DNA of 64,000 nucleotides, taken from Oscillospiraceae bacterium. GTDB taxonomy: Bacteria > Bacillota > Clostridia > Oscillospirales > SIG627. The stretch covers positions 51,057 to 115,056 of the forward strand of contig SVRV01000003.1 in the NCBI GenBank assembly GCA_015064635.1, written 5' to 3'. The notes beneath the pieces were generated by a model. That model was not told the origin of the DNA. It worked only from the letters and a program-made list of their open reading frames with translations, and did not search any database. Shown in pieces: positions 48,108 to 48,319 of this stretch. Numbering within the stretch: position 1 is the first letter of the stretch; each line of letters starts with the position of its first letter. A program made the position numbers and the translations under genes.

Positions 48108-48135
48108 ATTATACTACAAATTCAAGAAAAAACAA
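48108..48135 (-). promoter_or_regulatory. Candidate promoter of the four-helix-bundle gene
   Basis: TTGTTT-16 bp-TATAAT on the minus strand; -35 overlaps the first hairpin of the repeat ladder. Confidence 0.5.
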
Positions 48136-48319
48136 GGCGTAAGCCTTGTATATCATCAAAACAAAGTTTTGTATATCATCAATACGGAGTATTGTATATC
48201 ATCATTGCGAAAGTGGTTATATACACACTTGAAGGTGCGATGATATACAACAACGGCATTAAGCCGTTGTTGATGATATACAGCCTTCGGCTGATGATAT
48301 ACCATTGCTTTCGCAATGG
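48132..48319. repeat. Structured ladder: 3x GTATATCATC then 3x GATGATATAC, interleaved with hairpins
   Basis: Exact copies at 48148, 48171, 48194 (forward) and 48239, 48272, 48293 (inverted); every spacer is self-complementary. Confidence 0.92.

Follow-up and report, generated by a model that had tools for sequence, protein, structure and literature searches.

Intervening sequences (IVSs) of 23S ribosomal RNA (rRNA) are presented, in the available portions of two reports, as selfish elements that carry an open reading frame (ORF) for an S23p protein (PMC4990558) and are cleaved by RNase III (PMC4990558; 10.1101/2024.02.27.582315), and the available text of the second still treats the PF05635 protein family that they encode as functionally uncharacterised in 2024 (10.1101/2024.02.27.582315). 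Here, we analyse a repeat array found beside a PF05635 gene in a 64,000-nucleotide (nt) stretch of an Oscillospiraceae genome (assembly GCA_015064635.1, contig SVRV01000003.1, positions 51,057 to 115,056 of the forward strand), hereafter the window. In this array a constant 10-nt box, GTATATCATC, alternates with hairpins of variable sequence in two opposed halves. The array is one copy of a real, dispersed and presence/absence-polymorphic repeat element of uncultured gut Clostridia. We tentatively favour the reading, to which we would give somewhat less than an even chance, that it is the cis repeat module of an IVS-like selfish PF05635 cassette and acts as a folded single strand read by a pentamer of the encoded four-helix-bundle (4HB) protein. 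The cassette lies here behind a transfer RNA (tRNA) gene and not inside an rRNA.

The likeness to the 23S rRNA IVS resides in the PF05635 protein family encoded, in two opposed sets of complementary repeats and in the association with a stable-RNA gene, and it extends to the selfish, patchy distribution that the available parts of the literature describe (PMC4990558; 10.1101/2024.02.27.582315). However, whereas the classical IVS sits inside an rRNA helix, the array is found 3' of a tRNA gene and its terminator, and whereas the repeat arms of the IVS flank its ORF and close it, both arms here, in the window and in most of its relatives, lie upstream of the gene. Flanking arms of the classical kind were seen only in other Bacillota and at one locus of the window's own genome (on contig C34). 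Unlike the IVS, the array also has variable hairpin spacers that obey a c-GNA-g strand rule, a promoter of its own and, in most copies, no ORF. We found the repeat design of this PF05635/IVS-type cassette described nowhere, and it has no membership in any of the RNA or repeat families tested. A literature search for box, complement, protein-family and IVS terms, with supplementary files outside the search, returned no description of such arrays; the texts that contain the box or its complement, among the matches listed, hold primers, barcodes and similar sequences.

To our knowledge, Avd is the only understood member of PF05635, a large family. The available text on the Avd ribonucleoprotein of a diversity-generating retroelement (DGR) describes a positively charged pentamer "similar to S23 ribosomal proteins", with one stem-loop, encoded beside avd, that touches all five Avd protomers and whose flipped-out bases are held in crevices between them (10.1101/2023.10.23.563531). 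The parallel with our locus is that of a PF05635-like pentamer that binds a hairpin encoded beside its own gene, as far as the available text of that source goes (10.1101/2023.10.23.563531). The Avd ligand is one stem-loop, whereas here there are many short boxes, and their binding would be by analogy.

A third relevant system is that of the repetitive extragenic palindromes and bacterial interspersed mosaic elements (REP/BIME), which are dispersed extragenic palindromes at the 3' ends of transcription units, clustered in alternating orientation, with the gene for a REP-associated tyrosine transposase (RAYT) standing beside its own repeat class. Dispersed extragenic copies after transcription units, and a small protein gene beside its own repeat class with further copies scattered elsewhere, are features that the two share. 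In REP/BIME the palindrome is conserved, whereas here the palindromes vary and the linker between them is constant; furthermore, the linked protein is a non-enzymatic four-helix bundle and not a Y1/HUH enzyme, with PF01797 (RAYT) giving 0 matches in the window's own genome, which is 90.26% complete. The variable palindromes, the invariant linker and the missing RAYT argue against identity with REP/BIME-RAYT.

Results

Structure of the array in the window

The box occurs exactly at 48148, 48171 and 48194 on the plus strand and as its reverse complement at 48239, 48272 and 48293, as had been reported by an earlier note on this DNA, made from its letters alone. These six exact copies, three per strand, are the only ones in the window and all fall inside 48148-48302. 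With up to one mismatch allowed (<=1) there are 16 matches in the window against 3.99 expected, a number reached in 0 of 100 shuffles. A seventh box, degenerate and inverted (GGTTATATAC at 48215-48224), is absent from the earlier note. Every spacer between the boxes is a hairpin, and all the hairpins listed in that note are present. In the centre, ATTGCGAAAG (48204-48213) is complementary to 48309-48318, where the terminal hairpin has its loop and 3' arm. The hairpin at the other end, hp0, is terminator-like on the minus strand, and its foot overlaps the -35 of the promoter inferred for the 4HB gene. The parts of the array are as follows.

48132..48149, minus strand: hp0, the last hairpin (ACAAGGC-TTAC-GCCTTGT on the minus strand), then a T-run; terminator-like site 48149->48132
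48148..48203, plus strand: gene-side half-array, with GTATATCATC at 48148, 48171 and 48194 and hairpins at 48158-48170 and 48181-48193
48204..48238, no strand assigned: centre, with the half-hairpin ATTGCGAAAG at 48204-48213, the degenerate box at 48215-48224 and an imperfect hairpin at 48226-48237
48239..48302, minus strand: tRNA-side half-array, with GTATATCATC at 48293-48302, 48272-48281 and 48239-48248 and hairpins at 48282-48292 and 48249-48271
48302..48319, minus strand: terminal hairpin T (CCATTGC-GAAA-GCAATGG on the minus strand), from the sequence

When folded with an energy model as single-stranded DNA (ssDNA), either strand gives three box:box helices with four-way junctions and hairpin arms (-49.0 and -49.3 kcal/mol; z -10.7 and -9.6), and 0 of 200 shuffles fold equally well. 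Because the ssDNA folds give this box:box ladder, the structural sketch of the earlier note, in which the two halves pair into stacked four-way junctions, is an energy-model prediction. The folds do predict such pairing, but the halves do not appear to be kept for the purpose of pairing with each other, judging from uncompensated box variants and from arrays that run in one direction only.

Distribution and architecture of the family

The window's own genome contains a second '+++---' copy, on contig C37, plus two one-sided arrays. Array matches were found in 21 of 41 related genomes, at up to 22 places per genome, and a pattern scan with one genome per species gave at least 120 loci. Among the matches listed, nearly all record titles are bins of uncultured Clostridia, Eubacteriales, Acutalibacteraceae or Oscillospiraceae, and the sources, where named, are animal guts or faeces. 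One true array, on the 2249-nt contig L114, belongs to a bin labelled Kiritimatiellia; a binning error is likely, the other titles listed being Clostridia. In four gut metagenomes the summed contig depth is 476-4643 for the array versus ~1-25 for the flanking genes, a difference of several hundred times; the depth comes from DNA contigs and measures the abundance of the family, not its expression. A BLAST search of 48100-48352 against phage records and plasmid records produced no match. From an IMG/VR pattern scan came 20 stretches, three of them true arrays (L168 = L171, L172) that sit beyond a tRNA fragment, outside the viral part, the rest being unrelated tandem repeats.

Cluster statistics were drawn from 163 box clusters in 148 loci of gut Clostridia metagenome-assembled genomes (MAGs). 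The '+++---' architecture accounts for 86 of the 163, and none of them has the mirror order '---+++' as a pure cluster. Homologs with conserved architecture, for which the earlier note had advised a search, are abundant, and the variation in unit number that it had also proposed to follow is seen, with clusters ranging from '+---' to twelve boxes in one direction. Arrays of the one-direction type have 4-12 boxes, and their orientation relative to neighbouring ORFs is mixed on crude ORF calls. Several of these (L135:17-387, L084:827-1031, L121 and L107) have up to 12 units with obvious tandem duplication of unit pairs; that of L084 occupies the entire gap between two co-directional ORFs, and G+C-rich versions occur.

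The array matches no Rfam family, in the window or at the 22 loci scanned, in keeping with the earlier note, which had recognised no named family and had suggested this check. In a permissive Rfam scan of 47400-48900 the tRNA alone reached its gathering score, the best sub-threshold matches being ar9 (23.4 bits, cut-off 45) and Gut-1 (20 bits, cut-off 50), and gathering-score scans of the 22 loci returned tRNA and transfer-messenger RNA (tmRNA) only.

Constant boxes, variable hairpins and a strand rule

Box and spacer statistics were compiled from 75 distinct '+++---' copies. The boxes are nearly invariant across these copies. The variants that do occur are tied to position, GCATATCATC being found in box 1, GTATCTCATC in both box 2 and box 3, and GATGATATGC in inverted box 2. 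Box:box covariation was sought across the 75 copies and was not found; at position 4 of R3, C faces T in 35 copies and G in 3, and at position 1 of R1, C faces A in 20. The spacers, despite 41-61 distinct sequences per position, are mostly perfect end-to-end hairpins (54, 50, 69 and 64 of 75 at the four positions, against 0.2-0.6% of shuffled spacers), so that the idea of a structure kept while its sequence varies, put forward from the single array, holds for the family. Among the 397 distinct spacers of all arrays together, 244 form perfect hairpins and a further 36 have one mismatch. The terminal hairpin has a 6-bp stem in 68 of the 75 copies and a closing C:G in 72, with GAAA, GCA or GACA loops, and the stem of hp0 measures 5-6 in 63. 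By eye, in four sequence types, the half-hairpin in the centre changes along with the terminal hairpin across copies.

The loops follow a strand rule. On the strand that reads GTATATCATC, 284 of 436 loops are of the G..A type and 0 of the T..C type. The rule applies to 134 of 213 hairpins in one half and, on the opposite strand, to 150 of 223 in the other, T..C being zero in both; therefore each half appears to be selected as a single strand, with the active strand switching at the centre. The loop is closed by C:G in 54-72 of 75 copies, depending on the position, the triloops are GAA, GCA, GTA and GGA, and the tetraloops are divided between GNRA (n=64) and GNYA (n=54). Stem mismatches on the box-sense strand are G.T in 16 cases versus A.C in 3, G.T representing 16 of 1664 stem pairs. 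Stems range from 3 to 13 bp and box periods from ~19 to >30 bp, without helical phasing. An RNA rule would prefer GNRA tetraloops. The motifs c-GNA-g and c-GNNA-g, with any N, are those of extraordinarily stable DNA mini-hairpins in the available text of two sources (PMC13037366; PMC3201870). The loop statistics favour DNA as the active form, without amounting to proof. The earlier remark that the loops mostly read c-GNA/GNAA-g is true in the window and applies far more strongly across the family, and the accompanying statement, that such loops give very stable ssDNA hairpins, matches the mini-hairpin type in the available part of PMC13037366.

Paralog-specific boxes beside PF05635 genes

The neighbourhood of the arrays, taken as the 4 kb beyond each, was surveyed through 150 distinct ORFs of at least 100 residues. 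The one Pfam family that recurs among them is PF05635, with 10 members, followed by HTH_3 with 5, in the best 25 of the 125 families matched. These best 25 include no recombinase, and near the arrays they reveal no reverse transcriptase, template repeat or variable repeat of the kind that accompanies Avd. By eye, ~16 of 100 arrays are directly followed by a PF05635 gene.

The window's own genome encodes eight PF05635 paralogs, seven of which have before them an array constructed in the same way (n boxes, a centre and n inverted boxes, with hairpin spacers) in which the box differs each time: GTATATCATC, GTATGGAATC, ATGAAAT, TGTGAAATA, AGCTAAATT, GTGAAGT and GATGAAATC. The eighth (C34:70350-71050) has opposed AATGCAYA repeats and a shared hairpin on both sides, in an IVS-like layout, with no tRNA gene within 1.5 kb. 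For most of these box classes, gene-less arrays were found elsewhere in the genome. A blind 8-mer search of the regions that precede 68 PF05635 genes, taken from this genome and from relatives, detected such arrays at most loci, and a strict array test was positive at 24 of 61 4HB loci with at least 300 nt upstream, whereas 150 random windows gave 0 positives. Boxes of the GTATATCATC type accompany each of the 8 genes in relatives that share 78-82% identity with the 4HB gene of the window, and box class follows protein clade in a quick maximum-likelihood tree built on few columns, with support from the Shimodaira-Hasegawa-like approximate likelihood ratio test (SH-aLRT) only. Gene-linked arrays have 2-5 boxes per half, L263 excepted.

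Three further observations concern the box classes. By eye, ..TCAY is the ending shared by boxes of every class when they are read on the G..A strand. With respect to both the centre and the gene, the strand with G..A loops has an inward polarity in the protein clade of the window and an outward one in other clades (L220-L264). In several box classes (L230, L245, L247, L241, L224 and L238) a -10 of the TGnTAcAAT type precedes the array, whose last box is separated from the start codon by 15-20 nt; therefore the whole array would there be the 5' untranslated region (UTR) of the 4HB mRNA.

The 4HB protein and PF05635 loci of other Bacillota

AlphaFold2 predicts four helices for the 4HB protein of the window (pLDDT 95.6). 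Its profile matches PDB entries 2RLD (E 5.3e-42; TM score 0.86) and 2GSC, each of which has five chains, and Foldseek finds the Avd protein of the Bordetella phage DGR with a TM score of 0.75-0.78.

Outside the group, PF05635 matches were obtained in 11 of 60 other Bacillota genomes. By eye, short tandem boxes without hairpin spacers precede the PF05635 ORF at 11 loci inspected, and in most of them reverse complements follow it. The presence of such box arms around PF05635 ORFs suggests that the array of the window is thus a derived form of the classical IVS repeat arms. At L269 the ORF lies inside a 23S rRNA, as confirmed by a large-subunit rRNA match in Rfam, and by eye it also does so at L280, L288 and L292, which are near-identical loci. 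At L272 (1229-2003) a PF05635 ORF with complementary flanking repeats is found inside an RNase P RNA gene, where the RF00010 match spans 775 nt against a model of 367 positions; judged from its sequence, this is an IVS-like insert in a ribozyme gene. Two of the other Bacillota loci adjoin tRNA ends.

Surroundings of the array and position behind tRNA genes

Read along the minus strand, the locus consists of a D-Ala-D-Ala carboxypeptidase gene (dacB), a tRNA-Arg(CCG) gene, a terminator hairpin, the array, an inferred promoter and the PF05635 gene. Neither the tRNA-Arg(CCG) gene with its terminator nor the PF05635 gene figures in the earlier note, which is also silent on the att-like duplications and on the paralog-specific boxes. 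The features around the array are these.

48352..48428, minus strand: tRNA-Arg(CCG) gene (ARAGORN; Rfam tRNA 57.9 bits), with the array element starting straight after its 3' end
48323..48352, no strand assigned: A-run, 13-bp hairpin and T-run, a bidirectional terminator-like hairpin (13-nt inverted repeat, 100% complementary), then TTTTTATCC on the minus strand
48108..48135, minus strand: inferred promoter of the 4HB gene, TTGTTT (48135-48130), 16 nt, TATAAT (48113-48108), as read from the sequence
47743..48087, minus strand: PF05635 four-helix-bundle (4HB) gene, 114 residues (Pfam 23S_rRNA_IVP, E 3.1e-19)
47600..47741, no strand assigned: terminator at 47715-47731, then a truncated tRNA-flank insert of a second type (inverted T-loop copy GGACTCGAACC, conserved hairpin)

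In one contig of a metagenome (run X9, record 26, depth 5.9), 47670 is joined to 48040; the array and the first codons are retained, but the greater part of the 4HB gene is missing.

In 57 of the 114 two-sided copies, the first box comes 50-62 nt after the end of a tRNA or tmRNA gene. This gene runs in the same direction on the terminal-hairpin side, and 17 isotypes plus tmRNA are represented; a further 14 of 46 copies with enough flank follow a tRNA 3' fragment. The copies inspected all open with an A-run, which is followed by a hairpin of variable sequence and by TTTTTTATCC. At the far end, TTG[AT]NN-N16-18-TA[TC]AAT is present in 35 of 100 copies, its -35 being made by the last bases of the element, so the element often appears to end in an outward promoter that drives a PF05635 gene. 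The tRNA 3' end (~21-40 nt, from the T-loop) recurs after the array in 4 of the 57 tRNA-adjacent copies, at +36, +53, +582 and +1419 nt, and the two ends bracket either the array alone or the array and a small gene. At L099 a different, plain terminator lies beyond the second tRNA 3' end. In the window, no second copy of the tRNA-Arg 3' end occurs within 15 kb downstream. One cassette bracketed by such att-like ends (L103:3968-4696) contains, after the 4HB gene, a 242-residue ORF with a GxxGxGKS motif, by eye an ATPase.

Among 15 members of the genus, the orthologous dacB-tRNA-Arg(CCG) site has the array in 4. In one of the others (G005; L187 / L258, contig C95) it is occupied by a PF05635 cassette of another box class, with TTCATTAT repeats, and in the remaining members by a plain terminator or other small inserts. 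As the array is present in only 4 of 15, the element is therefore an insertion and not an old host feature. In the window's own genome, 5 of 20 terminal tRNA/tmRNA genes have any such array. No integrase was found near arrays, and neither of the 2 matches to PF00589 in this 90.26% complete genome is on an array contig.

A second insert family, which has no Rfam name, is also found behind tRNA and tmRNA genes. Its members are ~190 nt long, array-less and often in tandem, and they consist of their own terminator, an inverted T-loop copy (GGACTCGAACC-like), a conserved hairpin AAAACAGTCCnGTGGACTGTTTT and, last, a duplicate tRNA 3' end. They follow at least 8 of the 20 terminal tRNA genes of the window's own genome, with sites at C17 ~5170-5400, at C37 ~22620-22760 and at ~47600-47700 of the window, and are also seen at L023:210-590, L185 (after tRNA-Arg) and L010:1285-1480 (after tmRNA).

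Discussion

A detailed comparison of the array with its dispersed copies enabled us to propose a model for its function as the cis module of a PF05635 cassette. On the observed family, position, strand rule, missing box covariation and paralog-box link, the model would build as follows. Each half-array would work as a single strand, the one whose loops read c-GNA-g, and the hairpins would be looped-out spacers that bring the single-stranded boxes side by side. Looping out would make the boxes adjacent at any stem length, which would explain both the 3-13 bp stems and the missing helical phasing. It is plausible that the boxes are read by the protomers of a 4HB pentamer, by analogy with the way in which Avd holds the stem-loop of its own RNA with five protomers, with one pentamer per half-array. 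The form bound may be DNA, either extruded or melted, or else RNA, with the loop statistics in favour of DNA. The likely outcome would be control of the cassette's own promoter (autoregulation) and/or the upkeep and spread of the cassette and its gene-less copies.

Several observations weigh against this model. By eye, ~84 of 100 arrays have no adjoining 4HB gene, and 13 of 20 relatives with GTATATCATC arrays, five of them 94-99% complete, have no 4HB gene of at least 75% identity; therefore intact arrays persist without an obvious cognate protein. The gene at L218 is only 60% identical and also has GTATATCA boxes, and co-inheritance of gene and array could alone give the match between box class and protein clade. 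The array does not keep to one position, as it precedes the promoter in certain classes and lies within the 5' UTR in others, and a consensus promoter scan of 47650-48500 in the window lists 0 promoter-like sites. Furthermore, in the other box classes the loops of the first half on the gene-sense strand are T..C in 23 versus G..A in 2 of 35 cases, and the second half is reversed; therefore the half-arrays point outward there and inward in the clade of the window. This opposite loop polarity is predicted by none of the models considered.

The main rival of the cis-module reading, which we consider rather unlikely, involves no sequence-specific protein. Plus and minus boxes would pair within one strand, RNA or ssDNA, to form a rod of short helices with hairpin arms, a counterpart of the classical IVS stem that would be processed by RNase III or would simply render the selfish insert harmless, and the 4HB gene would be optional cargo; the boxes would then be uniform because each must fit several partners. 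The minimum-energy fold of both strands is exactly this box:box ladder (z ~ -10), and the numbers of plus and minus boxes are roughly matched. However, common box variants are uncompensated, one-direction arrays have no pairing partner, and a single folded strand does not explain why G..A loops switch strand between the halves (284 vs 0). The persistence of arrays in genomes without a close 4HB gene fits a pairing element, as do the PF05635 ORFs of other Bacillota that are flanked by boxes and reverse complements inside 23S rRNA (L269, L280 and others) and RNase P RNA (L272), and the available descriptions of the IVS as a selfish element cut by RNase III (PMC4990558; 10.1101/2024.02.27.582315), but the share of G.T, 16 of 1664 stem pairs, is smaller than would be expected of an RNA helix. 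An improbable alternative is that the array is the recombination scaffold of a tRNA-targeting integrative element, in which it would mark the tRNA-proximal arm of small mobilisable inserts and an integrase or directionality factor, provided in trans, would use the boxes as accessory (arm-type) sites. The arrangement, with short repeats in opposed sets on either side of a core, is reminiscent of the arms of lambda-type attP. The second tRNA 3' end that brackets 4 of 57 tRNA-adjacent copies, the presence/absence at the dacB-tRNA-Arg(CCG) site (4 of 15) and the tRNA 3' fragment that precedes 14 of 46 other copies would all agree with integration, but tRNA ends are duplicated in the same way at the 190-nt inserts that lack an array, so that insertion does not depend on the boxes, and arm sites require neither hairpins nor a strand-specific loop rule. 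Moreover, no integrase lies nearby, the 2 PF00589 matches of the window's own genome fall outside the array contigs, and the best 25 of 125 neighbour families include no recombinase.

We regard as very improbable a REP/BIME-like role for the host at the ends of highly transcribed tRNA units, where the array might act as an insulator or backup terminator, a stabiliser of the tRNA trailer, a supercoil sink, or an ssDNA priming or restart site like those of phage G4 or the single-strand initiation (ssi) signals of RSF1010. Its extragenic location directly after terminators and the terminator-like hp0 of the window copy would suit such roles, mini-hairpin motifs do occur at ssDNA priming sites in the available text of PMC13037366, and opposed halves might serve forks or polymerases arriving from either side. 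A general host factor, however, would make no sense of paralog-specific boxes; the array is not conserved at orthologous sites (4 of 15) and follows only 5 of the 20 terminal tRNA/tmRNA genes of its own genome, where PF01797 (RAYT) has 0 matches, and no primase or replication genes are linked to it in the best 25 of 125 neighbour families.

Other known systems resemble the array in part. RSF1010 has two ssi signals, on opposite strands. The likeness to the phage G4 origin and to ssiA/ssiB of RSF1010 consists in ssDNA hairpins with c-GAA-g mini-hairpins, as given in the available part of PMC13037366. Here, the best 25 of 125 neighbour families contain no linked replication genes, and there are many copies per genome and constant, paralog-specific boxes. 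The array resembles the clustered regularly interspaced short palindromic repeats (CRISPR) in that repeats of constant sequence take turns with spacers of variable sequence and in that the number of units differs between copies. The earlier note was right to set CRISPR aside, in which repeats of ~23-50 nt alternate with unique, non-palindromic spacers: the repeat is a non-palindromic 10 nt, the spacers are hairpins of 9-23 nt, the halves are opposed, and no cas family appears among the best 25 of 125 neighbour families. Integron attC sites, or clusters of attC sites lacking integron integrases (CALIN), are imperfect palindromes with complementary R''/R' core sites, one per cassette; they were rejected on the ground that the two boxes flanking a hairpin here point in one direction and lack complementarity.

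A broader form of the cis-module reading is doubtful as it stands. In this form, PF05635 4HB pentamers would be sequence-specific readers of single-stranded box arrays, and protein and array would make up a self-propagating two-part unit. Many specificity classes would coexist per genome, each with its own gene-less arrays, and would colonise the flanks and interiors of tRNA, tmRNA, 23S rRNA and RNase P RNA genes; such units would be REP/RAYT-like without a nuclease, and would likely be the stock of DGR Avd.

The array family is very abundant in animal-gut metagenomes, and it breaks MAG assemblies near tRNA genes. Its design is unusual, in that a single-stranded word that stays constant is joined to hairpins that vary and the strand changes over at the centre. 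Its loop rule matches the most stable known DNA mini-hairpins, and for this reason the array is a natural candidate for non-B DNA with a function in bacteria. The analysis unites rRNA intervening sequences, the RNase P RNA insert and the tRNA-flank inserts as forms of one kind of selfish cassette. Looking to the family itself, the array may show what PF05635, an unexplained gene inside rRNA intervening sequences, binds, and the paralog-specific cis array beside each gene provides a first testable ligand for it.

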